Shown: piece after piece, positions 184 through 56,877 of the stretch
Layout: each line of letters starts with the position of its first letter
Position numbering within the stretch: position 1 is the stretch's first letter
IMG/VR virus record: IMGVR_UViG_3300037755_000598
Span: 8,801 to 72,800 of that record
Strand: one strand, 5' to 3'
DNA from: a virus
DNA length: 64,000 nt
Translations under genes and position numbers: made by a program
Notes under the pieces: model-generated
Seen by the model: the letters and a program-made list of their open reading frames with translations, nothing else
The model's database searches: none
Told to the model about the DNA's origin: nothing

Positions 184-229
184 TGGCGTTCAATCGTGCG
201 CCCGTGATCGGGCGCACTGTTGAGCGTCA
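184..229. repeat. hairpin cassette-boundary element copy 1
   Basis: tggcgttcaat-c-gtgcgcccg-tgat-cgggcgcac-t-gttgagcgtca; tca = TGA stop of ORF 227..637. Confidence 0.95.
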
Positions 230-637
230 GGGAGTGAGAGATATAGTCACGTGCGGGTAATTGCTGAAGATATCGGCAAGCTCCCGCGCACGCCTGGCCT
301 GATTCGCGAATTGCTCCGCCAGGCCTGAAAAGGAAACCGTAGCCAGTGCCTGGCATTCGTCATAGCGGGCCGCCGCATGGCGCAACGCATCGGCAATCAG
401 ACTGCTATCAGTGTCCGTAATGACGGGCGGGACCGGATAGACGGGCGCATGGCCCGAGCCTATCTGATAGCGCGTAATGCGAAACGCGGCCGTATTGTTT
501 GCATGCTCGCCCGTTTTATCGACCAGGGCCACGGCGCTTGCCGCGTCTATCTCGTTGCGGATTATTGCCCATTCTTCCCAGTCACCGGACTCGCGCAACA
601 CTTGCACAATGTCGTGCGGTCTGAATGTATAAGGCAT
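227..637 (-). CDS. hypothetical protein (array cassette), 136 aa
   Basis: ORF bounded by elements 1 and 2; CGAGGA RBS; stop lies in element. Confidence 0.85.
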   Translation of the reverse strand: MPYTFRPHDIVQVLRESGDWEEWAIIRNEIDAASAVALVDKTGEHANNTAAFRITRYQIGSGHAPVYPVPPVITDTDSSLIADALRHAAARYDECQALATVSFSGLAEQFANQARRARELADIFSNYPHVTISLTP

Positions 638-652
638 GTCTCGTTCCTCGTA

Positions 653-698
653 TGGCGTTCAATCGGTGACCCGCGCACGGGTCACCTGTTGAGCGTCA
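653..698. repeat. hairpin element copy 2
   Basis: same outer arms; inner stem ggtgacccg/cgggtcacc, loop cgca. Confidence 0.95.
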
Positions 699-1124
699 CG
701 CTTCAATCAGTTCGTGTCGCGCCTCGCCGCTTTCGTCCTGAATGGCGCACTGCGCGGATTCAATTTCGGATGAGTTATCCGCGCACCATTGCGCCACGGC
801 TGGCGCGAACAGGTCCGCGTTGTCTCCACCGTGTCCCGTGCGCTGCCGATACTGGATTGATTCGGCGCAAGCGCTCATGAATGAAAGCAGCATTTCGAAC
901 GGTTCCACGACAGAGCGGAAGCCTCCCGCCCCGCTTTGCATGTCGTCTATGCGGTATTCCTGGCTCCCGATGTCCAGAATGAAAGCGGGACACATGCGGC
1001 GCATGCGCAGCTTCCCGGTGGAGACGTTCACTTCTGTCATTCCCTCCAATGACAGGAACGCGTCGCCAATGCGGAGCGCGGGCAACAGGCGCGCGCCGAT
1101 GATGAATGGAGCATGTAGTTTCAT
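696..1124 (-). CDS. hypothetical protein (array cassette), 142 aa
   Basis: bounded by elements 2 and 3; CGAGG RBS; stop in element. Confidence 0.85.
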   Translation of the reverse strand: MKLHAPFIIGARLLPALRIGDAFLSLEGMTEVNVSTGKLRMRRMCPAFILDIGSQEYRIDDMQSGAGGFRSVVEPFEMLLSFMSACAESIQYRQRTGHGGDNADLFAPAVAQWCADNSSEIESAQCAIQDESGEARHELIEA

Positions 1125-1139
1125 AGGTGCCTCGTTTGG

Positions 1140-1185
1140 TGGCGTTCAATCGATGGCCCGCGCACGGGCCATCTGTTGAGCGTCA
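1140..1185. repeat. hairpin element copy 3
   Basis: inner stem gatggcccg/cgggccatc, loop cgca. Confidence 0.95.
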
Positions 1186-1206
1186 AAAGGCTTCCAGTTT
1201 GCTCAT
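1183..1206 (-). CDS. 7-aa mini-ORF MSKLEAF, coupled to upstream gene
   Basis: ATGA overlap with stop of 1203..1523; ends on the element TGA. Confidence 0.35.
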   Translation of the reverse strand: MSKLEAF

Positions 1207-1523
1207 ACGCGCGCTCCCACGAGGCGCGCGATTCGGCGGGCACTAGAGGCCGTCACGGTGTCGGGTATGTGGAGCGCGCGCGATTCATTCGCGCCAGTCT
1301 CGAATTCCATCCCGTTTACTATCGTGATCCAGCGTGGGCGCACGCACGGATGCGAATCGGCTTCTATGCATTCCACGCCGTCCACGCGATTGGTTCGCGT
1401 GCGGTTTACAGCTTCGATTGCGTCGCGCAATGTGGCGTCCTGTTCGATGAATCCGCGTTCGCCGTCCTCCGCAGATTCTTGCGTGACAATTTCGAATGTC
1501 ACGCTGAAGCGTGCCTTGTACAT
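1203..1523 (-). CDS. hypothetical protein (array cassette), 106 aa
   Basis: start 15 nt after element 4 with CGAGGG RBS. Confidence 0.85.
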   Translation of the reverse strand: MYKARFSVTFEIVTQESAEDGERGFIEQDATLRDAIEAVNRTRTNRVDGVECIEADSHPCVRPRWITIVNGMEFETGANESRALHIPDTVTASSARRIARLVGARV

Positions 1524-1538
1524 ATCGTGTCCCTCGTA

Positions 1539-1584
1539 TGGCGTTCAATCGTGCGCCCGTGATCGGGCGCACTGTTGAGCGTCA
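1539..1584. repeat. hairpin element copy 4 (identical to copy 1)
   Basis: 46/46 identity to 184..229. Confidence 0.95.
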
Positions 1585-1815
1585 CTTGCCGGAAACCCGG
1601 TCCATGACCTGTGCGGGGATTGCATTCCATGAGGCGTGCATCTTTTCATCAGCGGCAAACTTCGCGGCCTGGGCGGAAAGGATTGCCGCATCCGTATGGA
1701 TGCGCCACCGCTGATTCGTCGCGCCGTAGTGCGCGACGCATGCGGCTTCGTATGCATCGTCCGCACGCTTCGCGGCTTCGTACCCGGCGAAATAGCTGGA
1801 TAGAATTTCAGACAT
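1582..1815 (-). CDS. hypothetical protein (array cassette), 77 aa
   Basis: bounded by elements 4 and 5; stop in element. Confidence 0.8.
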   Translation of the reverse strand: MSEILSSYFAGYEAAKRADDAYEAACVAHYGATNQRWRIHTDAAILSAQAAKFAADEKMHASWNAIPAQVMDRVSGK

Positions 1816-1830
1816 CTGTTGACCCTCGTA

Positions 1831-1875
1831 TGGCGTTCAATCGATGGCCCGGTTCGGGCCATCTGTTGAGCGTCA
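1831..1875. repeat. hairpin element copy 5
   Basis: inner stem gatggcccg/cgggccatc, loop gtt. Confidence 0.95.
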
Positions 1876-2127
1876 CGCGGGGAAGCCATGCTCCCATTGA
1901 TAGTGCAGCAATGAGCCAGGCGGATAAGGTGGCGCACCGTCCGACGTAAACCAGGCCGACACCTGATCCCCGTTCGTGTCATCCGTGCGGAATGTAACCA
2001 TAGCGAAGTCGCGGCCGTTCTCGTCGCCTGTGATGTTCGGGCGTGGCCCGACGTAATCGGCCGGAATGTTCCGCGCGGCAAGCGCCGTTTCCGCGTCCTG
2101 TCGTGTCCCTTTGATGACTAGCAGCAT
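1873..2127 (-). CDS. hypothetical protein (array cassette), 84 aa
   Basis: bounded by elements 5 and 6; stop in element. Confidence 0.8.
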   Translation of the reverse strand: MLLVIKGTRQDAETALAARNIPADYVGPRPNITGDENGRDFAMVTFRTDDTNGDQVSAWFTSDGAPPYPPGSLLHYQWEHGFPA

Positions 2128-2145
2128 GCTGTGACCCCTTCGTTG

Positions 2146-2191
2146 TGGCGTTCAATCGTGCGCCCGTGATCGGGCGCACTGTTGAGCGTCA
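2146..2191. repeat. hairpin element copy 6 (identical to copy 1)
   Basis: 46/46 identity to 184..229. Confidence 0.95.
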
Positions 2192-2371
2192 TGCTTCCAA
2201 TGCGTCAGCCAATTCATTGGCGAGACCATCGGCGCGCGTGTCGCCATTCATCGGCTGAAAGCCCCCAAGAATGCGCCACCGATAATAGTTATTGAGTGCC
2301 GTGACGGCTTCGCCGTACTTGCGCGCTTTAACCGCATGCGACAGTGTCTGTAATGTTGCTTCGGGGTCCAT
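2189..2371 (-). CDS. hypothetical protein (array cassette), 60 aa
   Basis: start reassigned to MDPEATLQ after CGAGG RBS; stop in element 6. Confidence 0.8.
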   Translation of the reverse strand: MDPEATLQTLSHAVKARKYGEAVTALNNYYRWRILGGFQPMNGDTRADGLANELADALEA

Positions 2372-2387
2372 GTGTGCCTCGTTGTGT

Positions 2388-2400
2388 TGGCATTCAATCG
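2388..2400. repeat. degenerate half element (copy 7, one arm only)
   Basis: tggcattcaatcg, flanked by cctcgttgtgt as in copy 9; no inner stem or second arm. Confidence 0.75.
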
Positions 2401-2570
2401 GCTTGTCGGCGCCGCAGACATTCGGGCAGCGATTCGACAATGGGGACGGCGGGGCGCGTGAAGCGCGCGTATGCCGCCATGATTGCGGCGTAACGGTCGT
2501 AAGGGTTCGCGCCCTCTTTCGAGGCTATTTCCATTGCCGCGCGGATGTAGAGCGGGTGTAGCTTGGACAT
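2394..2570 (-). CDS. hypothetical protein (array cassette), 58 aa
   Basis: start MSKLHPLY after GGAGGG RBS; stop falls inside the remaining arm. Confidence 0.75.
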   Translation of the reverse strand: MSKLHPLYIRAAMEIASKEGANPYDRYAAIMAAYARFTRPAVPIVESLPECLRRRQAD

Positions 2571-2584
2571 GGCGCCCTCCTTGT

Positions 2585-2631
2585 TGGCGTTCAATCGATG
2601 GCCCGATATACGGGCCATCTGTTGAGCGTCA
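2585..2631. repeat. hairpin element copy 8
   Basis: inner stem gatggcccg/cgggccatc, loop atata. Confidence 0.95.
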
Positions 2632-2802
2632 CAGCGTGGCAAGCTCAAGGAACCGCGTGTAGACCGCGCGCTCCGTGTCCGGCCATTTGACGAGCGTGGT
2701 ACGTCCGGACGTTGGCGCCGCGACCGTTCCCACCTTGCCGTGCATTGATCGTTCCGGCCCCGTGTATCGGACGTGCTGCTCTGCTTTGAATCGCTTGACC
2801 AT
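2629..2802 (-). CDS. hypothetical protein (array cassette), 57 aa, possible SH3/KOW-like beta fold
   Basis: start MVKRFKAEQ after CGAGGG; stop in element 8. Confidence 0.75.
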   Translation of the reverse strand: MVKRFKAEQHVRYTGPERSMHGKVGTVAAPTSGRTTLVKWPDTERAVYTRFLELATL

Positions 2803-2822
2803 GGTCGTGTCCCTCGTTGTGT

Positions 2823-2868
2823 TGGCGTTCAATCGTGCGCCCGATCACGGGCGCACTGTTGAGCGTCA
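2823..2868. repeat. hairpin element copy 9
   Basis: stem as copy 1, loop atca (reverse complement of tgat). Confidence 0.95.
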
Positions 2869-3060
2869 ATAGCCCAGGGCATCGCGCGCTTCCTGGAGCG
2901 TCTGGACATCGTCCAGCATGGTGAACGGCACGTTATCGCGGTCAATCGCGTGTGAGCCGATTCTCACGCGGTCATTGACGACGTGCGCATGGCAGTCATG
3001 CTGCTCAACGAACCGCGCAAGCGCTTTGAGATTCGCTAATCGACTGGGGGTCTGGTTCAT
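2866..3060 (-). CDS. hypothetical protein (array cassette), 64 aa
   Basis: bounded by elements 9 and 10; stop in element. Confidence 0.8.
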   Translation of the reverse strand: MNQTPSRLANLKALARFVEQHDCHAHVVNDRVRIGSHAIDRDNVPFTMLDDVQTLQEARDALGY

Positions 3061-3076
3061 TGCTCATTCCCTCGTA

Positions 3077-3123
3077 TGGCGTTCAATCGGGAGCACGCGT
3101 TGCGTGCGCCCTGTTGACTGTCA
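3077..3123. repeat. hairpin element copy 10 (diverged)
   Basis: tggcgttcaat-c-gggagcacgc-gtt-gcgtgcgccc-t-gttgactgtca. Confidence 0.9.
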
Positions 3124-3312
3124 CTGCGCGGCCAGCGTGAGCACACCGGCGAAGTCGAGTGCGCGTGCCATCTCGTTTGGGTCACACAGCCCGCGCTCAA
3201 TTGCACAGGGGTCGCTCGCCTCATAGGTGTCATTGGCGATTGCATCGGCGTACCAGGCGCGCATCTGCTCATCAGATACAAGCCGATACTCTGGCCAGAT
3301 AATCCGTGTCAT
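3121..3312 (-). CDS. hypothetical protein, first gene of array, 63 aa
   Basis: start MTRIIWPEY; stop in element 10. Confidence 0.75.
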   Translation of the reverse strand: MTRIIWPEYRLVSDEQMRAWYADAIANDTYEASDPCAIERGLCDPNEMARALDFAGVLTLAAQ

Positions 3313-3723
3313 TTGGTGGGGCCTCGCATTGGAGAGGGAAGCGGAATGCACCCTCTTGCATGCGTCTGGCCGTCAGGGAGAGGGAAGCGACAGCGTTGCT
3401 AAGGCCCGCTATCCCTCTCCCGAAGTCTCAAGTTTTGAAATAACAGCTCAGGGCTGGCCTGAGCATCGGCCTGGGATTCGTGACCGCCTGCGTGCGCGGA
3501 AGCTATCCTCTGGCCGTTACCAGGGTAAAGCCCTGGCGATAAAAGACAAGCAACGCGCGTGCCAACGAACTGAGCCGCAGCGTTATCAGTCACTTAGTCT
3601 TTTGGAGCTGACACAGACGGTCAGGAAGTGACAAATATTCCGTCACTTATGGACGCTCAACGTCACAGTGAGCGCAACGCAGTGCGCTGCTCACTCTTAT
3701 CTATATGCGTGGATCAGTAGTGT

Positions 3724-4221
3724 ATGAATAGCTCGCTCCCCAGACCGCCCAAGGGGGTGCGCTTCGGTGGCCGACAGAAAGGCACACCGAACGTGCTCCC
3801 CGACCTCCGAGCCATGACGCTCAAGGCACTGATGCAGGCAGGCGGGGTGGAGTACCTGGCACGCCAGGCGGAGGAGAATCCCGGACCGTTCCTTGGCCTC
3901 CTGGGCAAGGTGCTGCCTCGTGAGACCCATATGGAGCTGAGCGGGGAGCTGAAGGTGCGAGCGGAGGTGAGGCGCGACCTGGTCGAGAAACTCATTGTGC
4001 TGATGGCAGCCCCCGCAATGGAGCGCCAGGAGCGCACAACACCCGATGCACTGCCCGCTATCACGCACAAACCGGATGCAATGCTCAAAGCTCAGGCATC
4101 ACAAGCCCGCAGTAGCCTTAGCAGGCGAGCCGAGAACGCACGGCGCGAAGGAGTGGCTACCGTAGGGGGAGCGGTACACAGAGCGGCTGCTATGCAGACT
4201 GAGAGCATCACAGACGTATGA
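3724..4221 (+). CDS. terminase small subunit-like protein
   Basis: GGRQKGTPN and GGVEYL...ENP..F..LLGKVLP motifs typical of phage TerS-type proteins. Confidence 0.65.
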   Translation: MNSSLPRPPKGVRFGGRQKGTPNVLPDLRAMTLKALMQAGGVEYLARQAEENPGPFLGLLGKVLPRETHMELSGELKVRAEVRRDLVEKLIVLMAAPAMERQERTTPDALPAITHKPDAMLKAQASQARSSLSRRAENARREGVATVGGAVHRAAAMQTESITDV

Positions 4222-5361: not shown

Positions 5362-5625
5362 TCAGCGTTCAGGCAGCTTCCTGAGCTGTCGCTTACTGAT
5401 GCGCCGGGCCTTCCCGACCCGCCCCCGCTGCTTGTAGAGGTAGCAGCGCTTCACCAGTTCGTGAGCCCCTGCGATCTCCACGGAGCAATACTTGTCACGG
5501 TCCCATGCGGTCACGTTGACCAGGCGGATTGGCGCAAGCTTGCCGGGCGCATCGCCCAGCTCTGCAATCGGATAGTCTGTCCACGCTCTCACGCCGGGAC
5601 CCATCTGCTCTGTTGAGGGTCCCAT
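5362..5625 (-). CDS. conserved phage hypothetical protein
   Basis: WTDYP..LGD....API...V..WD.DKY pattern recalled from phage proteins. Confidence 0.6.
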   Translation of the reverse strand: MGPSTEQMGPGVRAWTDYPIAELGDAPGKLAPIRLVNVTAWDRDKYCSVEIAGAHELVKRCYLYKQRGRVGKARRISKRQLRKLPER

Positions 5626-5737
5626 CCAAGGCAGGCCGCGTGAGCGGGCAGCGCGAGCACGGTGCCTCCCTTTCCTTCCGGGTCCACCGGGATGAGGCGC
5701 GTACTGCGGAGCTTCGGCAATTTGTGACCCGGCTCAA

Positions 5738-6136
5738 TCACGCCGGGCCAACCTGTTCGATGACTCCGCGCTGACTTTGTTTCGCAATTCTCGTGAGCGC
5801 TTCCGTGATCTGCGCTTCGGCGCACTGCCCGTCCTCAATGGGCTCGATGCAATCGGGAGACGGGGCATACCAACAGACCCCCCATGGGTCACGCATGCGA
5901 CATCCCACCGTGTCGATGGCGACATACTGGCCCACCCATCGGTGAGTTCGTTCCCACCACAGGAACTTCAGGGGGGGGGTCTCGCACGGCTTTGGGTCGC
6001 CGATGACCGTCCCCGTCATCCCCAGAAGCTGCGGCAGGTACACGCACCTGATGACGCGCACCCGCGTTCCGACCGGATAGAATTTCAACTCTCGTTTCGG
6101 CGCAAAGGCACGCCGGAGGGTCCGGATGATGCTCAT
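5738..6136 (-). CDS. hypothetical protein, 132 aa
   Basis: ORF in leftward cluster; contains a G9 tract at 5971..5979. Confidence 0.6.
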   Translation of the reverse strand: MSIIRTLRRAFAPKRELKFYPVGTRVRVIRCVYLPQLLGMTGTVIGDPKPCETPPLKFLWWERTHRWVGQYVAIDTVGCRMRDPWGVCWYAPSPDCIEPIEDGQCAEAQITEALTRIAKQSQRGVIEQVGPA

Positions 6137-6306
6137 CGGTTCTTCATCAGTTCGGCGATGCTGGATGCCGTGCAGGCCGATGGCTTTGCCTTTCTGTCCT
6201 GACGTTCGGCATCGAGCTTCATTCTGTGCCGCAGCTTCGGGCTCTTGGGTGCCCGCCCGCTCACGCCGTGCTTGTGTGATCCCATGCCGCCGCGACCTTG
6301 TTGCAT
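6133..6306 (-). CDS. basic hypothetical protein
   Basis: fills gap; stop overlaps next start. Confidence 0.4.
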   Translation of the reverse strand: MQQGRGGMGSHKHGVSGRAPKSPKLRHRMKLDAERQDRKAKPSACTASSIAELMKNR

Positions 6307-6319
6307 GATCGACTCCCCG

Positions 6320-6568
6320 CTAGCGCCCGCGCAGCGGGCTGCACAGTTTCCGCAGCGCCTGCTTCTCAAAGGCGGTGTCATCCTGGATCGACGTATCGCC
6401 GCTCAGGTCATAGTCGAGCGCATGGATGATCTCGTGCAGGATGGTGGCCGTCGCCGCAAGCTCCACGGCAAGGCTCGGAAAGCGCGCCTTAACCTGCGTA
6501 TCTTCGGCAACGCGCTCCAGCAGATCACGCACCTGGTGCTCCTGGTAATCCCAGTGTCCGCCGCTCAT
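6320..6568 (-). CDS. conserved phage hypothetical protein (MSGG.WDY start)
   Basis: N-terminal MSGGHWDY pattern common in phage ORFs. Confidence 0.7.
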   Translation of the reverse strand: MSGGHWDYQEHQVRDLLERVAEDTQVKARFPSLAVELAATATILHEIIHALDYDLSGDTSIQDDTAFEKQALRKLCSPLRGR

Positions 6569-6690
6569 GGCTCGCTCTCGTCATCGGAGCTGTGATCGAA
6601 GAAGATCCAGTAGTACACGACCATGCAGGCGATGACGGCGCACGTGACGCAGAAGATCGTTATCAGGTCAATCTGGATGGCGATATTCAC
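6565..6690 (-). CDS. 41-aa single-pass membrane protein (not in ORF track)
   Basis: GTG start after AGGAG; hydrophobic LITIFCVTCAVIACMVVYYWIFF; ATGA overlap with next gene. Confidence 0.55.
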   Translation of the reverse strand: MNIAIQIDLITIFCVTCAVIACMVVYYWIFFDHSSDDESEP

Positions 6691-6744
6691 AAACTCTCCT
6701 TTGATGCAGACCGCTCAGCACAACGCTGAGCACCGGAGTTGAAC

Positions 6745-6942
6745 ATGACTGAGCTTCCCTCTGAAAATCTCCCCGCCCCGAAGGGTGGCTTCCTGTTCCT
6801 GCATCGTGATGCCGATGGCAGCGAGCAGCCCATTTGGTATTGCCTGACCGAGCCGGAAGCGAAGTCTTTTGAAGCCGGAATGAATTACGGCCGTGAACAT
6901 CCTGAACCGGGCTTTCACGGACAGCGCCACCAGCCCGGATGA
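6745..6942 (+). CDS. hypothetical protein, opposite strand to neighbours
   Basis: GGAG RBS before ATG at 6745. Confidence 0.4.
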   Translation: MTELPSENLPAPKGGFLFLHRDADGSEQPIWYCLTEPEAKSFEAGMNYGREHPEPGFHGQRHQPG

Positions 6943-7220
6943 AATGCTCCATACGCCGTGAGGCCCGCGAGCACCGCGATGACGATGCACAGCAGACCAC
7001 GCTGAATATTTCTCACTGTCGTCCTCTTTCGGAGTTCAGGGGGTGCCCCCTCCATGGTGGCGTTATCGATGGCCCACTGCATGAACGTGAGCGGGTGTAC
7101 GTCCCGGCGCAGGGTCAGCGCGATGACGACGCCGACAAGAGCGCTCGCAACCTCCCCGTCCGTCAGCGCGTACTTGCTCTGTAGCTCAGAGACCTCTTTT
7201 ATGTATTCATCGCCCGTCAT
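6915..7220 (-). CDS. hypothetical membrane protein
   Basis: start reassigned to MTGDEYIK; C-terminal TM segment. Confidence 0.55.
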   Translation of the reverse strand: MTGDEYIKEVSELQSKYALTDGEVASALVGVVIALTLRRDVHPLTFMQWAIDNATMEGAPPELRKRTTVRNIQRGLLCIVIAVLAGLTAYGAFHPGWWRCP

Positions 7221-7293
7221 GGTGGCGGCTCCGGCATGCACAGCATCACAACTGCAACGAGTTTCGTCTTCATGGAAATTTCCTCGTGTTGAA

Positions 7294-7605
7294 TCAGGGC
7301 ACCACGTAGATGTGCTGGAATCCTTTTTCGCGCCACAGCGAGCCCGCGTAGCGCTGCGCGATGAGTACCGCATCCTGGAACGCCATGAGTTTGCCGACAC
7401 AGACCGGCTCGCCGTCGCAGCCGGTGCCGGTGCCGATGCGGAATTTCCAGATCGCGACGCCCTGTGGCTCATGGCCGTGGGCGAGCTTGTAGTCGCGGTC
7501 GAAACAGATCACGACCAGGTCAGGACGGCTTTCAGCAAGCCACGCCCAGCTCCGAGCTGTGCTGCTGAGCCCATCCCACGCATCGGCGACGTATATTTTG
7601 CCCAT
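7294..7605 (-). CDS. hypothetical protein, 103 aa
   Basis: start reassigned to MGKIYVAD. Confidence 0.55.
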   Translation of the reverse strand: MGKIYVADAWDGLSSTARSWAWLAESRPDLVVICFDRDYKLAHGHEPQGVAIWKFRIGTGTGCDGEPVCVGKLMAFQDAVLIAQRYAGSLWREKGFQHIYVVP

Positions 7606-7610
7606 CGAGT

Positions 7611-7808
7611 TCAGTGCGCCTTCTTCAGCCTGCGCTCGCGGAACGCGCGCGCGGCGAGGTCCATGGTTGCCCGCAGGATATTGAAGACCTCCTGGTGACG
7701 GGGGTCCTTCGCGAGCCATTTCTGAATTCGTGCGCGTCGCGCATCGCTGCAGCCGTCGTTATCAAGTTCCACGACATAGCGCGCTGCTTTCTTCTGAATG
7801 TTGCTCAC
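7611..7808 (-). CDS. stand-alone FecR N-terminal domain (DUF4880-like) protein
   Basis: AARYVVEL......ARRARIQKWLAKDPRH matches FecR N-terminal AA.W..RL......F..WLA.DP.H; no TM or periplasmic part. Confidence 0.65.
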   Translation of the reverse strand: MSNIQKKAARYVVELDNDGCSDARRARIQKWLAKDPRHQEVFNILRATMDLAARAFRERRLKKAH

Positions 7809-8266
7809 GGCGACTTCATCCTTTGGGCCCCCGCGCGCGCATAGCGCCGCTTGTAGCGCTCCAGATTTCTGGCTTTGCGTTGCGCGATGACGGCCTGCTG
7901 CTCGCGCCGCTTTTCAATCTGGGCGACGAGCGCGAGGAACGGGTACGGCTTGCGTGGCATCTCATCGAGAAACGCACGGAATTCACGCTCCCAGTCCTGC
8001 CATGATTCAATCGTGAGCACTCGCGGCCGGGGATTCTTCGCTTCCTGGTCCGCCCATTCGCGGAATGAATGCCACAGCTTCAGTGCTTCACGCCGCCCCG
8101 CGCCAAGTTGCATGCGCCATCGAATCCATGCCTGTTTCGTGATCGTGGTCTTGCGAAGGGTGACGCGCGGCGGATCGGCCGGCGCGTGTCGTAGCGCACG
8201 GTCGAGTTTTTGGAAGTCGCGCGATTTCAAAGGTGATTCCCCTTCGGCCAGCCGCAGTGTTTGCAC
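7805..8266 (-). CDS. hypothetical protein, 153 aa
   Basis: ATGA-type overlap with downstream gene. Confidence 0.55.
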   Translation of the reverse strand: MQTLRLAEGESPLKSRDFQKLDRALRHAPADPPRVTLRKTTITKQAWIRWRMQLGAGRREALKLWHSFREWADQEAKNPRPRVLTIESWQDWEREFRAFLDEMPRKPYPFLALVAQIEKRREQQAVIAQRKARNLERYKRRYARAGAQRMKSP

Positions 8267-8889
8267 TGATGCGGCATATCGCCTGGTTCAAAGCGATGCG
8301 CGATGACAGTAGAGCCCGCGCGCAACGCGTCGATGCGCGCCTGAACGCGCTCTTCCCTGCGGCGGCAACGATGCCGATACGCCGTGCGCGTCGTTTCCTG
8401 ATTCTCAAATATGCCGGCGGACCATCCGCCCACCATGATGGCCATGGGCACGATGGCCATCGCAATCAGGGTCCAGTACCAGTTGGCGTCCAGTTGCAGA
8501 AGCAGAAGCATTTCACTGAATGCAAGGCTTCCTGCACACAGGGCTTTGAGTGTCCTTTTTGAGCGCAGCCCTCGCGCGAACGCGCAAAATCCGTCGCGGC
8601 TTTTCTGAAGCCGGCTTCGTTCTGCCGGACCATCGGTGAAGCCGATGGGGCCAAATCCCGGAAGCACGACGATATACGTCTGCTCCCAGCCGCAGCGTGT
8701 GTCACGCTCCATGAAGTAGGGCTTGACGACGAGATTTGAAAAATCGTAGTCGTGAATGAAGCAATCGTGCAGCCGCGTCACGTGCTCAACGAGCGCGGCG
8801 CGGTCGTCAAGCTCGACGCAGGTTTGCATTGAGTCATCGAGCGCGAGCGTGCCGCGATGTTCCCGGAATTTCATGGCGCCAACTCCCAA
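8227..8889 (-). CDS. hypothetical protein, possible fusion of two small genes
   Basis: N-half FREHRG..SM...D.RCGW.TYIV...GFTDGP phage pattern; C-half TM plus CxxC. Confidence 0.55.
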   Translation of the reverse strand: MGVGAMKFREHRGTLALDDSMQTCVELDDRAALVEHVTRLHDCFIHDYDFSNLVVKPYFMERDTRCGWEQTYIVVLPGFGPIGFTDGPAERSRLQKSRDGFCAFARGLRSKRTLKALCAGSLAFSEMLLLLQLDANWYWTLIAMAIVPMAIMVGGWSAGIFENQETTRTAYRHRCRRREERVQARIDALRAGSTVIAHRFEPGDMPHQCKHCGWPKGNHL

Positions 8890-9098
8890 AACTCTCGTAC
8901 GGTGGCGGGCATCGGCCTTTCTTCGGGCTCCAGGGCCGCCAGCATCCGACGCATGCCATATTCAGTGAGAAGCTCCTCATACTGCGCATCTGTCGGGTTA
9001 GTGTTTCCGCACCAGATCACACGCTCAATCGGCCAGTCCGCGAAGGGCAGCCCGGAAGCATCCCCGATGAGATAAATGCGATAGACCATCTTCGTCAT
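8871..9098 (-). CDS. hypothetical protein, 75 aa
   Basis: overlapping start/stop with neighbours. Confidence 0.55.
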   Translation of the reverse strand: MTKMVYRIYLIGDASGLPFADWPIERVIWCGNTNPTDAQYEELLTEYGMRRMLAALEPEERPMPATVREFWELAP

Positions 9099-9451
9099 GG
9101 CGACCCCATGGGCGGCACGGTGATTTTGCCGAGCGCCTTATCGATTCGCAGTTGATTGCGCGCCTCGCGCAATGATTCGCGTACCTCAGGTGGCAACTCT
9201 GCTTCTGCGCGCTCATCGAGCGCCAGCACAACCACGCGGGCCTTTGAGTTATCCTGCCATCGCGCGATGGCGACTTCGCAGCGTGCGCACACCATGATTC
9301 GTGTGGCGCACGGATCGCGCCGGGTGTTATCGAGATTGCCGCCGCTGGCAAAGCCACTCATCTTCGTCATGATGTAGCCGCATCCCGGGCATTGCACCGG
9401 CTCCATCCGGTACGGCCCAGGCTTCAGCCGGTCAACGCGCACTGGCGTCAT
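9095..9451 (-). CDS. zinc-finger hypothetical protein
   Basis: CPGC ... CARC. Confidence 0.6.
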   Translation of the reverse strand: MTPVRVDRLKPGPYRMEPVQCPGCGYIMTKMSGFASGGNLDNTRRDPCATRIMVCARCEVAIARWQDNSKARVVVLALDERAEAELPPEVRESLREARNQLRIDKALGKITVPPMGSP

Positions 9452-9897
9452 CGTTTTTCTCCACCGGGAGCTTGAGGAAGGGACTTCTTACAAATCGTCT
9501 GCATGCCGCCCATGCGATGCCACTCGCCGTCCAGCGGCCAGTTGTCGTCACAGGCCCAGCATTTCACTGCGCCTGTGAATTGGGGAAATCGGCGCCTCTC
9601 ATAGAACACGGCCACGTCCGCCAGCAAACTCAGCTCGGCGCCGTCCGGCGAGTCTTTCGCCGGGTCCGAGAGCATTAGCTGCTCGATACGGGTCATCACG
9701 GTTTTGTATGGCTCATCAGGGTGAGGCGCTGGGGCTTTCACTGCGCCTCGGACGCAATCGATGGCGTCGTCCAGTTGCTGCCTGACGTACGCCACGTTCC
9801 ATATCTCACAATGCCCGTGAGAGCCGACGCGGGCGGCACGGATTGCGCGATACCGCGCAGCGTCGTCTGCATCACGTGACGAGGACGGCGGAGTCAT
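9448..9897 (-). CDS. hypothetical protein with HigA-antitoxin-like N-terminal helical motif
   Basis: RIEQLM...SPDGAELSLLADVAVFYERRRFP resembles HigA L....PEGDEL..L..L...YE...P. Confidence 0.55.
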   Translation of the reverse strand: MTPPSSSRDADDAARYRAIRAARVGSHGHCEIWNVAYVRQQLDDAIDCVRGAVKAPAPHPDEPYKTVMTRIEQLMLSDPAKDSPDGAELSLLADVAVFYERRRFPQFTGAVKCWACDDNWPLDGEWHRMGGMQTICKKSLPQAPGGEKR

Positions 9898-9908
9898 TTC
9901 TGTTTCCT

Positions 9909-10427
9909 TCAGTAAGCGATCATCTTGAACACAATGCGCGCCCCGCTATCATTGGCGCGCTCGATGCGGCGACGCATGTCGTCAGTGCCGTTGCCGCCGG
10001 GAAAGCCAAGCGCATGAGTGGGCTTGCCTTTGTCGAGCATTTCCTGATTGCGGATGAAGCCGGCCACCACGTTGTAATTTTCTCCGGTGGGGTGCCGGCG
10101 AACCACGGCGCCCGGAACGGTGATGTCACCCCACTTTGCGGGGTATGGCTCTTCGATGATGCCCTCGTGACGCCACTGTTCGCAGAACGTATGGGCGTAA
10201 TAGTCCGCGCCGATCTTTTTCTTCCGGTTCGCATCGCCGTGGATGATCGTGACGCGATTGAACGGGATGCCGTCCGTGAGCTTAAACAGCTCCTCATGGA
10301 CGAATGCGGAGTGCGGGTAGGTACGGCCTCCGAAGACGAGGATTCGCAGCTCATCTGATATGGCCAGGTCGCCCAGGCGAATGCTTCTTTCTGCGTCTGC
10401 CAGCATGTCATCCCTTTCCGTGCGCAC
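9909..10427 (-). CDS. SLOG family protein (DUF2493/YspA-like)
   Basis: ILVFGGR, IIHGDA..GAD, YPAKW, AGFIRNQEML, FPGGNGT.DM motifs. Confidence 0.8.
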   Translation of the reverse strand: MRTERDDMLADAERSIRLGDLAISDELRILVFGGRTYPHSAFVHEELFKLTDGIPFNRVTIIHGDANRKKKIGADYYAHTFCEQWRHEGIIEEPYPAKWGDITVPGAVVRRHPTGENYNVVAGFIRNQEMLDKGKPTHALGFPGGNGTDDMRRRIERANDSGARIVFKMIAY

Positions 10428-10528
10428 TCTTCTTATATGTGGTGCCAGCGTCCCATTCTAACTTGAGGGCCGCTCAAGGTCATCAGGGCCGTGGCGGGCC
10501 CTTCCAGGTCAACAACTTACGGTGAAGC

Positions 10529-10789
10529 TCAAATCCAAACCTCCAGGATGGCCGGATCGTCTTCCGGACTGCGCTCTAATCGCGCGCAGCCACCCGCAAG
10601 CGCAATCGCCGCCCGCGCGGCGGTGAGATCGTCAAACGGCGCGACTTCTTCGGTCATGCGCTCGCCGTACCAGACGCGCACAACATATTTGGCGTCCTGC
10701 CAGTCGCGCGGCCGATAGTAAACGGTCCACATTGGCGGCAATCCACCCTGCGGGCCGCGAAACTGAAGCGGGGGAGCCTCGCCGCTCAT
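10529..10789 (-). CDS. conserved phage hypothetical protein
   Basis: WTVY..P.D....YVVR.W ... R.PEDDPAILEVWI pattern. Confidence 0.65.
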   Translation of the reverse strand: MSGEAPPLQFRGPQGGLPPMWTVYYRPRDWQDAKYVVRVWYGERMTEEVAPFDDLTAARAAIALAGGCARLERSPEDDPAILEVWI

Positions 10790-11334
10790 CGTTCTTTGCG
10801 CACCAGCGTTGGAGCGCGATAGCTCTTTGACGACGAAACAATCGGCGTCTGGAGCAATGCCCCGGCGCCAATCCTGAGCACCGTGGCAGCTTCGCGGAAT
10901 TCAGCCGCCGATTCGGTCAGGGTGTAGTAGCCCACGTTCTTGCGATATTCAACATTGACCGCGAGTTTCTGTCGCAACCCATGCAGCACGGAATTCACGG
11001 TGGTGCGCGCAAGATTGCTGGCCGTTGACAGCATGCCGGCCGACGCCGGCCCGCTGAATCGCGCAAGACAGCGCCCCAGCTCGGTTTCCAGATAGGTAAA
11101 TTTTGACGGCTTCCCAACGCGCAGCCGCATGCCAATTTCGGTGCGCAGCGTGACAAGTTCCGCATCAGTGATGACGCCACTATCGCGCGCGAGCCCCGCC
11201 ATGCGCGTGAATACGTCTGCCAGAACGTGAATCGTTTCGCGGGTGAGATTTTGCTCCAGAGGGGCGCCGATTTGATCGGACTTTTCTCTGGTGGCCACGT
11301 TCTGAGCTACGCTCAATCTGTAGTCTGCTGCCAT
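10786..11334 (-). CDS. winged-HTH (OmpR/PhoB C-terminal-like) DNA-binding protein
   Basis: TYLETEL...L ... RTTVNSVLHGLRQKL ... VGYYTL; no receiver domain. Confidence 0.55.
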   Translation of the reverse strand: MAADYRLSVAQNVATREKSDQIGAPLEQNLTRETIHVLADVFTRMAGLARDSGVITDAELVTLRTEIGMRLRVGKPSKFTYLETELGRCLARFSGPASAGMLSTASNLARTTVNSVLHGLRQKLAVNVEYRKNVGYYTLTESAAEFREAATVLRIGAGALLQTPIVSSSKSYRAPTLVRKER

Positions 11335-11406
11335 GTCGCCCCCTTCGCTAAAGTAGAGCGTAGCACATGCCCGGACGTTGTACTTCATTGAGAACAAGGC
11401 ACTTAG

Positions 11407-11763
11407 ATGGGTAGTGAAGAATTATTGATGGTGAATTCTTTCGACCAGCAGATACCACCGGACGCGGCGAAGATTCGCCTGCGTCCACATATGGTGGACT
11501 TTGCGCATTCCATGGCGCTCGCCTGCTATATCGCGGAGGCGGCGGACGTACTCGCATATCTGCGATGCCACTATCCGGATAAGCGCCCTGAAGCCCGCGA
11601 CATTGCGCAGCGCTATTTCGGTGTCGATCAGCGCAACGGATGGCGCTCATGGCTCATCTCATTGCGCGCAGCTCCCCTTCTGTGGACTGATAAGCCGGTG
11701 CCCGGCATCGCAGAGCTTCGGCCTCTGCATGAGGTGTCTGGCATCACCCTGCCGCCGGGCTGA
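11407..11763 (+). CDS. hypothetical protein, paralog of N-half of 8227..8889
   Basis: RPH....AHSM ... YFGVDQRNGW ... WTDKP aligns with REH....DDSM ... YFMERDTRCGW ... FTDGP. Confidence 0.55.
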   Translation: MGSEELLMVNSFDQQIPPDAAKIRLRPHMVDFAHSMALACYIAEAADVLAYLRCHYPDKRPEARDIAQRYFGVDQRNGWRSWLISLRAAPLLWTDKPVPGIAELRPLHEVSGITLPPG

Positions 11764-11894
11764 GTGCTCGCAGACCCGTTCCGGCGCCACCAATATCAAT
11801 TCACGACGGCGGGGCGCAGGCGTAACTCAGGATGCAGCAGGAGAGTTCCCCCGAACCCCACGGGCCTGCGAGCGACTAGAGCGTACCACTAGTT

Positions 11895-11909
11895 GCAACA
11901 TTATGTTGC
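11895..11909. promoter_or_regulatory. palindromic operator GCAACATTATGTTGC
   Basis: 7-1-7 palindrome, identical to 56906..56920. Confidence 0.75.
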
Positions 11910-11924
11910 GCTTTTTGTGCAAGC

Positions 11925-12775: not shown

Positions 12776-14290
12776 TTGATCGACGAATTCGCCTTGCGCC
12801 AACAGCTCGAAGAGCTGTCGGAGCATGAGCTAGCCGTGGCGTATTGGAAGGCGCGGTGGTTACGGCAGGCCCGCCCAAAACAGCTCCCGCCTGATGCCAT
12901 CGACCCGGACTGGAAAGTCTTCGGCGTATGCAGCGGTCGCGGCTTCGGCAAGACCCTGGCCGGGGCCAACTGGATTGGCCTTGAAGCCGCGCAGCATCCC
13001 AACTCATTCAACGCGGTGATCGCGCCTACCTATCAGGACGCGCGCTATACATGCTTTGAGGGACCCACCGGATTGCTCGCGGTGATTCCGCCGATCCTCT
13101 ACAAGCCGGAAGACTACTCCCGCTCAGTCCCCTCGCTCACATTGTGGAACGGCGCAGTGCTGCGCGGATTTGCCGGCGACTCGCCCGACCGTCTTCGCGG
13201 CCCGCAGCATCACCGCGTATGGGCAGAAGAGCTGGCCGCATGGGCGTACCCCGAAGAGGCGTGGTCGAACATGATCTTCGGCCTGCGCCTGGGTAAACGC
13301 CCCCGCTGCATGTGGACGACGACGCCGCGCCCTACGGGATTCATGCGTGAGCGTATGAACCCCGCGAAGGGCACCGTCATCGTCACCGGCGCCATTCACG
13401 AGAACGCCGACAACCTGCCGGCTTCGACGCTCGAAGAGATTGAGCAATATCGCGGCACGCGTATTTGGGAGCAGGAAGCGCTCGGAAGATTAATCGACCC
13501 CGAAGAAGGCGGCATCGTGAGGCGCTCGCAATGGCAGCTCTGGCCGGTGAATAAGCCGCTGCCGGGATTCCTGTGCATCGTCATGTCGCTTGATACCGCG
13601 TTCACGGAAGATACGGTGGACAAAAAGACGCGCGATACGGACTTCACCGCATGCAGCGTGTGGGGCGTGTGGGAGGAATACGCGCCCGACACGGTTCGCG
13701 CCGGCAGTCACGTCAAAGGCAAGTCCACGCGCCATGTGCTGCTGCTCGATGCCTGGCAGGACAAGCTCGGGTTTCCCGATTTGGTTGCGCGGGTAAAAGA
13801 AGAAGCACAGGGGAAATACGGCGAGACAGAAGAAATCGCGCACCCGATCTATGGCAACGCGCGGCCGAAGAACAAAGGCGGCCACGGCATCGACATGATC
13901 GTCATTGAAGACAAGGGCTCCGGGATCAGCCTGCGTCAGGCGCTGGCACGCGAAGGATTGCTCTGTCACGCGTACAACCCCGGTCGCGCAGACAAGCTCG
14001 CGCGTCTTCATCTTGTAAGCCCGCTGTTTGCCTTCGGCCGCGTATGGGCTGTCGAAAGCGACCGGCATCCGGGTCGCCCGAAGATGTGGGCCGATCCGCT
14101 CATTACTCAGGTGTGCTCGTACTCCGGCGAGGGAACGATTGCACATGATGACTTGCTCGACTCCACAACCGCCGCGCTGCGCGTGCTGAAGGACCAGTGG
14201 ATACCCGCGTTCACTCCCGCGATCAAACGGGACGAAGACGACGTGGTGCGCAAGAAGCCCGGCCCCGTGATTAATCCATATGCAGTGTGA
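12776..14290 (+). CDS. terL: terminase large subunit
   Basis: Walker A GRGFGKT, LRGPQ, W.EE Walker B, TTTP motif III, C-terminal nuclease with D-rich motifs (IEDKGSG, HDDLLD). Confidence 0.95.
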   Translation: MIDEFALRQQLEELSEHELAVAYWKARWLRQARPKQLPPDAIDPDWKVFGVCSGRGFGKTLAGANWIGLEAAQHPNSFNAVIAPTYQDARYTCFEGPTGLLAVIPPILYKPEDYSRSVPSLTLWNGAVLRGFAGDSPDRLRGPQHHRVWAEELAAWAYPEEAWSNMIFGLRLGKRPRCMWTTTPRPTGFMRERMNPAKGTVIVTGAIHENADNLPASTLEEIEQYRGTRIWEQEALGRLIDPEEGGIVRRSQWQLWPVNKPLPGFLCIVMSLDTAFTEDTVDKKTRDTDFTACSVWGVWEEYAPDTVRAGSHVKGKSTRHVLLLDAWQDKLGFPDLVARVKEEAQGKYGETEEIAHPIYGNARPKNKGGHGIDMIVIEDKGSGISLRQALAREGLLCHAYNPGRADKLARLHLVSPLFAFGRVWAVESDRHPGRPKMWADPLITQVCSYSGEGTIAHDDLLDSTTAALRVLKDQWIPAFTPAIKRDEDDVVRKKPGPVINPYAV

Positions 14291-39844: not shown

Positions 39845-40065
39845 GAATCGCAATCATCGGAATTATCGCGCTGTCGCTGTGCGGCTGCTCGATCATCATG
39901 CCGAAAGCCGGCCCGCAGCTCGCGAAGGCCGTGAACAAATACTGCGCAAAGGTTTCTCAGGAAGAACGCAAGCTGCTGCGCGATCAGGTCAACGAGGCAA
40001 TCATGCCGAATCAGGCGTGCGTGTACTGCGATGGAGACGAGGCCGGGCGCTGCATTACTCCGTAA
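39841..40065 (+). CDS. lipoprotein (possible outer-membrane spanin)
   Basis: signal peptide with lipobox-like LSLCGC. Confidence 0.5.
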   Translation: MRIAIIGIIALSLCGCSIIMPKAGPQLAKAVNKYCAKVSQEERKLLRDQVNEAIMPNQACVYCDGDEAGRCITP

Positions 40066-47582: not shown

Positions 47583-48185
47583 CTAGAAACGATACCTGGC
47601 GAAGACGGAGAAGAAACGCAGTTCCCAGTCAACGTCTACATCTTCTACGTCCTGCTCTACTTCGGTTTGCTCGACTTGCGCACCGATGGTGAGATTGTCC
47701 GTGAGGCGTGCCTGTATCCCGATCCCAAAAGTGAAATCGGTGCTGCTGTCTTCAAGCGTCTCGGTCTCGCCGTCAAGCGAGCCCGTAAGGTCCGCGTCCC
47801 AGCGTGATACACCGATGCGGCCAAACCCTTCGACCCCACCCGCAATAGGGAATGTCCCAATGGCAGAGACCTGGAGCACGTCCACATCCAGGGTCAGGTT
47901 CGCGCCGCCGCCGCTCTCGGAAAATTTGCCGGGGTTGTAGTAGCCGGCCTCCAGGGAGAAGTACGGATTCAACTGATAGCCACCAAAGACTTTGAATCCC
48001 GTTTCTTTCAACGTAGCCGAGCCGTCGAACTCCGAGCTGCTCACCTTCAGGCGGGACTGGCCCACTGCCCCGCCCATGTAAAAACCGCTTTCGCTTCCAT
48101 CGACGACACCCGGTATCGCAGCGTGAGCCGCGACAGGAACGCCCCCGATGATTCCCATTACGGCCAACAGAATCGATGCCTTCAT
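47583..48185 (-). CDS. outer-membrane 8-stranded beta-barrel (OmpA-like TM domain)
   Basis: signal peptide, GFYMGG.VG, GYQLNPYF.LE.GY, C-terminal YRF. Confidence 0.85.
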   Translation of the reverse strand: MKASILLAVMGIIGGVPVAAHAAIPGVVDGSESGFYMGGAVGQSRLKVSSSEFDGSATLKETGFKVFGGYQLNPYFSLEAGYYNPGKFSESGGGANLTLDVDVLQVSAIGTFPIAGGVEGFGRIGVSRWDADLTGSLDGETETLEDSSTDFTFGIGIQARLTDNLTIGAQVEQTEVEQDVEDVDVDWELRFFSVFARYRF

Positions 48186-56046: not shown

Positions 56047-56877
56047 TTACGGAATCTGATCGTCAAGCGGTTCCGCGAGCTTCGCGCGGTGCGCGGCTTC
56101 GCCAGCATCGAGCTGGGAGGTTTCCCAGTCGCGCCAGGCCATCTCTGCAATGATCTTTTCGCGCGTCGCCTGTGGCGTGCGCTCGGCGTTGAGAAACCAT
56201 TCCAGGTCCCGCGTCGTCATGACGTTCCACGGAACGTCATAGTTCTTTTTGCCGTAGCCGAAGATGCCGCCGGGACGCATCTGCGCGGGCTTCCCGTCGC
56301 TCGTTCGCTCGGGATCATGGGATGCGCGTGGCGGCGCAGGGGAGCGGGGAGCAGAAGCAGCGTGAGAGGGCAGCTCTCGCTGATGTTCCGCCCGGGATTG
56401 CCGCTGGGGGTCCTGCGCCGCCACAACCTCGTGCGTGTTCGCGTCCGGGTCATCGCCCGTGATCGGAATGCAGAACGTCTGGACGGCGAGATACTTGTAT
56501 GCGGTGGCCATCGCTTTGTTCGTGGCCTTGTCCCCGGTGTCCATCGCCTCCCCGTAGATGGGGCCGATGACTTTGCTCGATCCGTCGATGGGGCAGATGA
56601 ATTCGTAGGTGAGCTTGAGCAGCGCGTGGAAGAGTTTGCCGCCGGCACGCGTCTCGCGTTCGGTCACGTGGTGCTCAAGCACGCTTGGCAGGATGAGCAG
56701 GTTGTTGCGGTTGAGCGATGGCGCCAGCGCGTCCATCACATCGTCCACGCCCCGGTACATGAAGCTCTGCGATTCGTTGCGCTTGAGTTTGCCTACCCCG
56801 ATCTTCGCCATATCGGACATGACGCTATGGATCGCGGCATAAACCTTCTGAACGGCAACATTTGCTGGCTCGGACAT
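56047..56877 (-). CDS. erf: ERF-family single-strand annealing recombinase
   Basis: YRGVDDV...L ... GEAMDTGDKATNKAMATAYKY...QTFCIP. Confidence 0.9.
   Translation of the reverse strand: MSEPANVAVQKVYAAIHSVMSDMAKIGVGKLKRNESQSFMYRGVDDVMDALAPSLNRNNLLILPSVLEHHVTERETRAGGKLFHALLKLTYEFICPIDGSSKVIGPIYGEAMDTGDKATNKAMATAYKYLAVQTFCIPITGDDPDANTHEVVAAQDPQRQSRAEHQRELPSHAASAPRSPAPPRASHDPERTSDGKPAQMRPGGIFGYGKKNYDVPWNVMTTRDLEWFLNAERTPQATREKIIAEMAWRDWETSQLDAGEAAHRAKLAEPLDDQIP

Follow-up and report, generated by a model that had tools for sequence, protein, structure and literature searches.

A folded element of 46 bases, present as 16 full copies and one half copy, punctuates a single operon of an uncultured temperate phage. 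From its sequence and setting it most likely acts on mRNA: the stop codon of the gene upstream, the Shine-Dalgarno (SD) site of the gene downstream and the spacing between them are parts of the unit, which indicates a primary role at that level. Specifically, we propose, with roughly even confidence, that it would be a modular intercistronic linker (stop, hairpin, start), the mosaic of genes between its copies being a by-product of recombination. It is a new structured cis-element, well supported by covariation across about 90 copies and absent from Rfam and from cultured phages, and it divides an accessory-gene operon into plug-in units.

Organisation of the array

The full copies span positions 5669–11923 of a 73,268-nt contig, of which 64,000 nt (contig 8801–72800) were analysed as the window. 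All share one orientation within a single leftward operon of minus-strand genes, and a covariance-model scan of the whole contig found no copy outside the array. The nine full copies and one half copy (right arm only) reported in a preliminary description were all found in the window where it had placed them (Table 1), and the two-arm pattern is exact in eight copies against 0 expected from 100 shuffles. Its statement that the array continues past the left edge was likewise borne out, seven more full copies occupying contig 5669–8679. The half form, which retains the right arm and the SD, recurs in L050.

Each unit had been described as exactly a ribosome site, one ORF and one element; not all are, three units outside the window containing two ORFs or a split ORF. 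Beyond the last element the operon runs on, with genes joined by 4-nt overlaps. Compared against PHROGs and Pfam, nearly all of the array ORFs stay ORFans. Such arrays pick out ORFan early or accessory genes, which may serve in host takeover or anti-defence.

Table 1. Features of the array and its surroundings, in window positions.
Feature	Position	Strand	Remarks
Element copy 1, promoter-proximal	3077..3123	-	Left-arm variant, TGACAG; one bulge in stem; covariance model 57 bits
Element copy	2823..2868	-	Stem as in 184, 1539 and 2146, loop exactly inverted; covariance model 70 bits
Element copy	2585..2631	-	ATGGCCCG stem, 5-nt loop; covariance model
Half copy	2388..2400	-	Right arm GATTGAATGCCA only, SD next; TGA of upstream ORF inside arm
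Element copy	2146..2191	-	Identical to copies 184 and 1539; covariance model
Element copy	1831..1875	-	3-nt loop; covariance model
Element copy	1539..1584	-	Identical to 184 and 2146; covariance model
Element copy	1140..1185	-	Upstream ORF stops 18 nt earlier, same frame
Element copy	653..698	-	GTGACCCG stem; covariance model
Element copy	184..229	-	Identical to 1539 and 2146; leftmost in window
Ten small ORFs with elements between them	227..3312	-	57–142 aa; nearly all ORFans; each with ACGAGG-type SD
Array ORFs, first five	3121–3312, 2866–3060, 2629–2802, 2394–2570, 2189–2371	-	
Array ORFs, other five	1873–2127, 1582–1815, 1203–1523, 696–1124, 227–637	-	
Divergent regulatory region and leader of leftward operon	3313..3723	.	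GTCAC/GTGAC inverted repeats
Terminator-like hairpin	3446–3464	-	Inside 3313..3723
Conserved 165-aa gene, divergent from array	3724..4221	+	phrog_11043, function unknown
ERF-family single-strand annealing protein	56047..56877	-	PF04404, 48 bits

Fold and covariation

Read in gene direction, the element consists of UGA-C-NN-UCAACAG, a GC-rich stem of 8–9 bp, a loop of 3–6 nt and CGAUUGAACGCCA, after which come 3–8 nt, an ACGAGG(G) SD site and the start codon. Its 45–48 nt form a single interrupted hairpin of about 22 bp, at whose foot the UGA pairs with the 3' CCA. Changes on both sides were seen at 12 of 17 pairs, with 97% of cells paired; the covariation score of 0.44 compares with 0.09 in shuffles and at most 0.04 when slid. 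The outer pairs covary too, with replacement of C-G by U-A at pair 4/51 and of A-U by C-G at pair 10/45.

The inner stems are perfect or wobble-paired, with bulged (extrahelical) bases absent, and their internal wobbles comprise 14 G.U on the sense strand vs 1 A.C (p=0.0005). Folding of the sense RNA gave z values of -2.4 to -5.1. A 2x2 internal loop, CA/GA, is near-invariant and a 1x1 internal loop is conserved. Of three A.C or C.A mismatches in the outer helix, two are near-invariant and one varies; on the opposite strand, whose fold is 4–14 kcal/mol better, they become G.U pairs. The outer arms pair better on the bottom strand, in contrast to the preference of the inner-stem wobbles.

The arm sequences are more strongly conserved than the paired positions. 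Moreover, conservation of the flanks far exceeds structural need, even across phage contigs that share no detectable protein, and therefore a sequence-specific partner is implied; the invariant CA/GA loop likewise suggests that a specific partner may exist. Neither a U-tract nor sigma-70-like hexamers were found with any copy. An intrinsic terminator was rejected, as the 3' flank is CGAUUGAACGCCA, without a U-tract, and the terminator scan flags 0 copies. Promoter and ECF-promoter readings are both ruled out by spacing.

Stop codon, ribosome site and a probable action on mRNA

Among 88 copies of the element, 71 have a first triplet, TGA, that ends an open frame of at least 45 codons (baseline 0.33, p=1e-19). 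Within the window this TGA terminates the upstream ORF in frame at eight of nine full copies, as originally described, the exception being the copy at 1140. The start codon of the next gene lies mostly 13–21 nt past the element, and the window ATGs are indeed placed at the 13–20 nt first noted. An ACGAGG-type SD stands 5–9 nt ahead of the ATG in each of the ten window ORFs. The array genes share an SD of the ACGAGG(G)TCA type; those of the structural genes are weak and varied. Readthrough or selenocysteine recoding of the UGA was rejected because the downstream frames hold stops; in the 2823 copy, for instance, the loop has a second in-frame TGA.

A ribosome terminating at the UGA would have to open the weak, mismatch-bearing 13-nt outer helix, and the strong inner stem would remain just outside the mRNA entry channel. 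Opening of the outer helix could transiently free the right arm beside the next ribosome site, and the persistent inner hairpin would insulate adjacent cistrons; it may also protect mRNA ends or serve as a processing or protein-binding site. As the SD lies outside the hairpin and is not sequestered, coupling through its unmasking is only plausible. The linker would stand in for the 4-nt overlaps of stop and start that join other genes of this operon, and any ORF placed between two linkers would then be expressed. The better folding of the opposite strand, through the outer-helix mismatches, counts against an action on mRNA.

Cleavage of the T7 early mRNA takes place at hairpins that lie between cistrons and have internal loops. 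The present element could similarly be a processing signal of RNase III type, or for another endonuclease, whose duplex would be cut to give monocistronic mRNAs with hairpin ends, the conserved internal loop setting the cleavage pattern. The helix of about two turns with conserved 1x1 and 2x2 internal loops, the position between cistrons throughout one operon and the sense-strand preference of the wobbles are all consistent with this. So strict a flank sequence is more than RNase III requires, however, and processing alone would leave the fixed position of the stop codon unexplained. We regard this reading as unlikely, though credible; it also places the element on mRNA, and could coexist with a stop-hairpin-start linker. 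The array offers a clean natural case in which to test how coupling, insulation or processing respond to a hairpin lying exactly between the stop of one gene and the ribosome site of the next.

Likeness of the left arm to the promoter region

The regulatory region at the head of the operon contains an inverted repeat, GACGCTCA-N9-TGAGCG, that is similar to the left arm of the element. In both G000 and the relative G001 the promoter-region inverted repeat carries a left-arm match of 10–11 nt, and the CTCACC variant peculiar to G001 is present in its elements as well as in this repeat. This likeness hints at a possible reading at the DNA level, in which the arms (TGACGCTCA and, on the other strand, TGGCGTTCA) would be half-sites for a phage regulator that silences or paces transcription of the operon and also binds the inverted repeat at the divergent promoters.

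Such a ‘stoperator’-like role would suit arms that are conserved more than paired positions and a single orientation relative to transcription, a property of L5 stoperators. The match in G001 is to be read against a raised background, as the left-arm 8-mer is also enriched elsewhere in that genome (7 scattered copies vs about 2 expected). Furthermore, a duplex-DNA site explains neither the covarying stems nor the 14:1 sense bias of the wobbles, variation in loop length would shift the phasing of the half-sites, and the element is found in phages without any shared detectable regulator. Taken with these points, we find the reading distinctly unlikely.

The divergent 165-aa gene on the far side of this region served as the anchor with which relatives were fetched. 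The AlphaFold model of its product is all-helical and of low confidence (pLDDT 70, pTM 0.30).

Occurrence in other sequences

The covariance model detects about 90 copies, distributed over at least ten further uncultured phage contigs. From a looser viral scan, which gave 111 stretches, 77 newly fetched ones were run through the model and a true copy was found only in L071/L119. L171 has just two weak copies, among genes of variable spacing, and one element-free relative, available as a gene table only, has overlapping stop and start codons instead. A metagenome scan gave three short contigs only. There was no match among the INPHARED cultured phages, by megablast with 8 kb or by blastn with the element, and Rfam at a permissive E-value returned only two far sub-threshold miRNA-hairpin matches, on the opposite strand. 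Profiling for a shared trans-factor, on the fragments available, turned up no protein that the phage groups with the element have in common.

A pattern scan of the 185,579 species genomes of GTDB gave no hairpin-bearing match. Its 31 single matches were taken as chance because all lack the inner hairpin; one, borderline and in coding-like DNA, was set aside. A REP/BIME element served by a RAYT was rejected on this result and because a search for the Y1 (RAYT) transposase gave no PF01797 match.

The element variants are genome-specific, which suggests concerted evolution. This, together with its presence in phage groups sharing no detectable protein and its absence from some relatives, would fit a palindromic repeat of MITE or REP type, selfish or neutral, that spreads into the gap between stop codon and ribosome site and is tolerated there. 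However, no target-site duplications were found at the elements and no transposase, the repeat is absent from the species genomes scanned, and neutrality is hard to square with the purifying selection seen on the fold, on unpaired loop bases and on the frame phase of the TGA. A repeat of this kind therefore seems to us very unlikely.

Exchange of genes between elements

Between the same elements, related phages hold largely different ORFs. The ORF families common to six relatives keep a partly conserved order with few swaps, and homology stops exactly at the element in all four junctions tested. On sequence comparison the cassette-like mosaicism is thus real. The covariance-model search proposed beforehand accordingly recovered the same element flanking different, and in some cases reordered, ORFs in relatives. 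Hairpin type is not significantly linked to the upstream or downstream ORF. In G001, left- and right-arm variants occur in all four combinations in a single-site comparison; in whole-arm tables the four combinations were not filled. Contigs from the source run, a DNA metagenome and the only run to contain the phage, break at the identical copies and showed no joints at elements, although this is a weak test.

Homologous recombination from one repeat to another best accounts for the mosaicism, as it does with T4 PeSLs. Each genome offers 10–25 near-identical direct repeats of 46 bp as homology for recombination mediated by ERF or by the host, and the ERF-family protein encoded in the window is a plausible catalyst. 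Such recombination would delete, duplicate or exchange single genes between co-infecting relatives and so generate a cassette-like mosaic; the shuffling logic would be that of the PeSLs, and a dedicated site-specific recombinase would not be required. The arrays let one ask whether short regulatory repeats make phage ORFan regions hyperplastic.

The capture and excision system of integron kind that had first been suggested did not hold up: no integron-type integrase or attI lies by the array, and there is only a weak tyrosine-recombinase-like gene 47 kb off. PHROGs gave a weak integrase match only (window 50818–52167), and a PF00589 search of G000–G004 a single sub-threshold match (12 bits), 47 kb from the array.

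The element might alternatively be an attC-like folded single-strand site at which a dedicated or host recombinase excises and inserts single-gene cassettes. Its left arm fits RYYYAAC and its right arm TTRRRY, and on the non-coding strand the outer arms are fully paired, G-T wobbles included. The ORFs are promoterless and in one orientation, and the mosaic junctions fall at the element, with a few cassettes reordered. Both the loop and the entire core were also seen inverted at the DNA level. Against this, there is no adjacent IntI or attI and no Y1 transposase, and G001 is without a tyrosine recombinase (PF00589) in its 46.5 kb. ATT replaces the invariant GTT, extrahelical bases are absent, the wobbles favour the top strand, and attC has no use for the conserved SD and spacing; known attC sites are longer than 45–48 nt. 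Relatives keep a largely colinear gene order, as homologous exchange predicts, and the joint-free source-run contigs, weak test as they are, point the same way. We consider this reading highly improbable. Integron membership proper was rejected (no IntI or attI, an R' of ATT, no extrahelical bases, wobbles 14:1 for the top strand).

A dual use is also very improbable. Here the element would be a stop-hairpin-start coupler on mRNA and, in addition, a folded ssDNA site of dedicated recombination without a nearby integrase; a specific protein would recognise the coupler through the invariant CA/GA loop and the flanks, and the folded ssDNA reaction would excise and reinsert single genes. If true, this would be a phage-borne functional analogue of the integron, common to phage groups without a shared detectable protein.

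Comparison with known systems

Like attC sites, the elements are imperfect palindromes 3' of promoterless ORFs, in an array of one orientation, with conserved flanks and a variable centre. Of the two boxes, R'' fits RYYYAAC (GCTCAAC) and R' is ATTGAAC vs GTTRRRY, with A in 79 of 82 distinct copies. The present element differs in being shorter, tied to the SD and favoured on the top strand, with no IntI, attI or Pc. The early RNase III sites of T7 likewise lie between early-operon cistrons as interrupted duplexes of about two turns; here, in contrast, the flanks are far more strictly conserved and the element includes the stop codon. L5-type (cluster A) stoperators share the many copies in short gaps, the single orientation and a similarity to early-promoter sequence, but are unstructured 13-bp duplex sites without a covarying hairpin.

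Among known systems, the SAS/ESAS of cluster K mycobacteriophages and the PeSLs come closest. SAS/ESAS comprise a 13-bp consensus, GGGATAGGAGCCC, ahead of start codons, with 17-bp inverted repeats upstream (PMC3203893), and have a presumed translational function (Pope et al. 2011, PMC3203893; PMC12699233). In both systems an SD-containing motif stands just before start codons, often after an imperfect inverted repeat and with a short variable spacer, and there are 10–20 copies per genome, in one orientation, at non-structural genes only, with subgroup-specific consensus variants. The sequences and hosts are unrelated, however, and only here does a covarying hairpin include the stop codon of the upstream gene, in an uninterrupted array with one copy per intergenic gap that coincides with mosaic junctions.

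The analogy to PeSLs drawn at the outset proved apt, as the element bounds ORFan indels and replacements; in both cases repeated regulatory motifs flank small ORFans in hyperplastic regions and delimit such changes between relatives. For T4-type phages, homologous recombination between PeSLs has been put forward as the source of the shuffling (Arbiol et al. 2010, PMC2839356; Comeau et al. 2014, PMC4122927). A PeSL, however, is an early promoter with a stem-loop terminator and acts on transcription, whereas the present element, without promoter hexamers or a U-tract, combines a stop codon, a hairpin and a ribosome site.

Organisation of the repeat array and the phage genome

The window covers bases 8801–72800 of an IMG/VR virus contig 73,268 nt in length. 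The repeat, read on the plus strand, runs from TGGCGTTCAATCG through a stem-loop to CTGTTGAGCGTCA, and the exact two-arm pattern occurs eight times in the window, with none expected from shuffles. A ninth copy at 3077 carries two substitutions relative to this pattern, and a copy at 2388 has a single arm left. The array genes lie on the minus strand. Each copy begins with TGA in gene direction, and in the window the next ATG follows the end of the copy by 13–20 nt, both as the preliminary description had stated. Its view that the array extends past the window edge was also borne out, with 16 full copies in one orientation on the whole contig, and a covariance model run over the genome detected no copies besides these. 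The claim of one ORF per unit held for most units; a few contain two. Nearly all array ORFs are ORFans, and beyond the last element the operon goes on with genes joined via 4-nt overlaps.

Logan contigs of the source run terminate within identical element copies (positions 6756, 9000–9005, 10368 and 10962 of L049), indicating that k-mer assemblies fragment at the repeat. Such arrays are probably under-represented in short-read assemblies.

The phage is temperate and encodes at least one ECF-type sigma fusion. Its OmpA-like gene is likely to be a lysogenic-conversion gene and points to a Gram-negative host.

Features of the phage genome (window positions unless stated)
Feature	Position	Strand	Remarks
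Full element copies	contig 5669-11923		16 copies
First ORF past last element	contig 5362-5649 (left of window; L049)		weak sub-threshold match to Lar restriction-alleviation zinc-ribbon family (PF14354, E=4e-4)
Leader of leftward operon	3331-3464
GGAGAGGGAAGCG, two copies	3331-3343, 3376-3388
Complement of GGAGAGGGAAGCG	3407-3421
Terminator-like hairpin	3446-3464	-	U-rich tail
Inverted-repeat cluster	3587-3675; L012 8341-8387		GTCAC/GTGAC
Large terminase	12776-14290		49% identity to Caulobacter phages RW, RLK, GB2A
501-aa protein	40055-41560	-	C-terminal 190 residues, ECF-type sigma factor (Sigma70_r2 + r4_2); N-terminal 300 residues without assignment
OmpA-like outer-membrane beta-barrel protein	47583-48185	-	PF13505, 78 bits
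tRNA-Arg(TCT)	48785-48861	-
Integrase	50818-52167		weak match
DUF6551/ParB-like nuclease domain protein	52466-53317	-	adjoins integrase region
ERF annealing protein	56047-56877
tRNA-Thr(TGT)	63875-63949	+

Distribution of the element

The element had no match in Rfam and was not found in the INPHARED phages. Screening GTDB with one genome per species returned 31 pattern matches, which were taken as chance since the inner hairpin was not formed, one borderline match aside. A clear relative of the phage under study (G000) is G001, an uncultured phage contig with syntenic structural proteins of 50–90% identity, which carries 10 copies in the same genomic position. A conserved gene of 165 aa that is transcribed away from the array served as anchor for fetching further relatives, which contained approximately 16 (L165), 20 (L169), 10 (L163) and 7 (L164) copies. 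L171 had just two weak copies, and one relative, with overlapping genes in its gene table, was without the element. Between one and four copies each were present in G002, G003/L015/L016, G004, L051, L052 and L071, contigs with no protein detectably common with G000, G001 and the anchor-fetched relatives.

Structure and folding strand

The proposed fold was scored on 82 distinct copies: pairing reaches 97%, 12 of 17 pairs change on both sides, and the covariation score of 0.44 compares with 0.09 for shuffles and ≤0.04 when partners were slid; the alignment, being fitted to the model, favours the structure, but the control scores are nonetheless far lower. Covariation is seen in each of the eight inner pairs and also in the outer helix formed by the arms, where pair 4/51 changes from C-G to U-A and pair 10/45 from A-U to C-G; a variant with bases gained in both arms forms extra pairs, CUGUU with AACAG. 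Conservation is highest at unpaired positions, namely the UGA and an internal 2x2 loop in which 5'-CA faces 5'-GA, retained in 79–81 of the 82 copies, which suggests a putative specific partner.

Full pairing of the outer arms, including three G.U pairs, is available to the non-coding strand only, which folds better by 4–14 kcal/mol in the four copies folded, and the A.C mismatches fixed in the element are not accounted for by folding of the sense strand. Independent evolutionary changes favour the opposite strand, however: of the non-Watson-Crick pairs inside the inner stem, 14 are G.U on the sense strand and one is A.C (p=0.0005). Sense-strand wobbles also occur at several variable outer positions. 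We conclude that selection for folding acts on the sense strand. As the element incorporates translation signals, this strand is taken to be the mRNA.

Translation signals

Of 88 copies from more than 10 contigs, 71 have their TGA as the stop of a reading frame that is open for 45 codons or more, against a random-position baseline of 0.33 in the arrays (p=1e-19); the ORF stops 4–23 nt upstream of it in nine copies and the remaining eight are ambiguous. Across contigs the next start lies mostly 13–21 nt downstream of the copy. An ACGAGG(G)TCA-like Shine-Dalgarno (SD) region is common to the array genes, that of the structural genes being weak and varied, and half copies in the window and in L050 retain the right arm and SD.

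The strong inner stem starts 13 nt past the U of UGA, and this spacing supports a model in which stop, hairpin and start form a linker. Given the geometry of the ribosomal mRNA channel, a ribosome terminating at the UGA would already have opened the weak outer helix, with the inner stem still closed. We propose, with moderate confidence, that the element is a new mRNA-level intercistronic linker, the repetition of which also drives shuffling resembling that at PeSLs, the promoter-early stem-loops of T4-type phages.

Promoter region and leader

G000 and G001 share, in conserved form, the inverted-repeat cluster of the divergent promoter region. Part of this cluster is GACGCTCA-N9-TGAGCG, the first 10–11 nt of which equal the left arm of the element; the G001 counterpart has its own CTCACC variant. 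This recurrence of the left arm within an inverted repeat in both phages is what stoperator-like sites, with the element read as DNA, would lead one to expect. We regard that reading as less probable; the background frequency of the left-arm 8-mer is raised, and a duplex-DNA site leaves the covarying hairpin unexplained.

The leader of the leftward operon carries two copies of GGAGAGGGAAGCG and their complement, followed by a terminator-like hairpin. These segments can pair in alternative ways, which hints at a riboregulator or attenuator preceding the first array gene. Left-arm GCTCA together with right-arm GATTGAACGC (e.g. window 184–229) equals 15 contiguous bases of the 5' domain of E. coli 16S rRNA, and the string GGCTCAGATTGAACGCTGG was confirmed in annotated 16S genes. 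The match is probably coincidence, because diverged copies retain just TGAAC or GATTGA.

Mosaicism and recombination

Only two of the ~20 ORFs in the G000 array have homologues in that of G001, in opposite order. At the four junctions tested (G003 vs L016, G000 vs L050 and two of G000 vs G001), homology of 62–95% on one side of the element gave way to none on the other. Eighteen ORF families recur across the fetched arrays, mostly in colinear order with many insertions and replacements and a few swaps (F1/F2, F2/F7, F2/F16). The cassette-like mosaic is real.

Hairpin type was not co-inherited with either neighbouring ORF, and G001 contains all combinations of left- and right-arm variants at the single-site level. 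The loop alone is inverted at the DNA level in window copy 2823–2868, and in L165:8773–8820 the outer arms flank a core (CAG-hairpin-CGA) that is inverted as a whole; both are small, palindrome-mediated DNA inversions. All these patterns are compatible with recombination inside repeats as well as from one repeat to another. Since the phage encodes an ERF protein and no recombinase adjoins the array, homologous exchange explains them most economically.

Comparison with known systems

The integron-like mechanism suggested earlier is not supported: the array has no adjoining integron integrase or attI, and the element, unlike the cassette site attC, is without the GTT of R' and without extrahelical bases and has the opposite strand preference. 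The nearest architectural analogue is provided by the SAS/ESAS repeats of cluster K mycobacteriophages (PMC3203893), whose function, as a 2025 survey notes (PMC12699233), had yet to be tested. The element differs from PeSLs with respect to promoter and terminator, but its evolutionary behaviour is the same as theirs (PMC2839356, PMC4122927).
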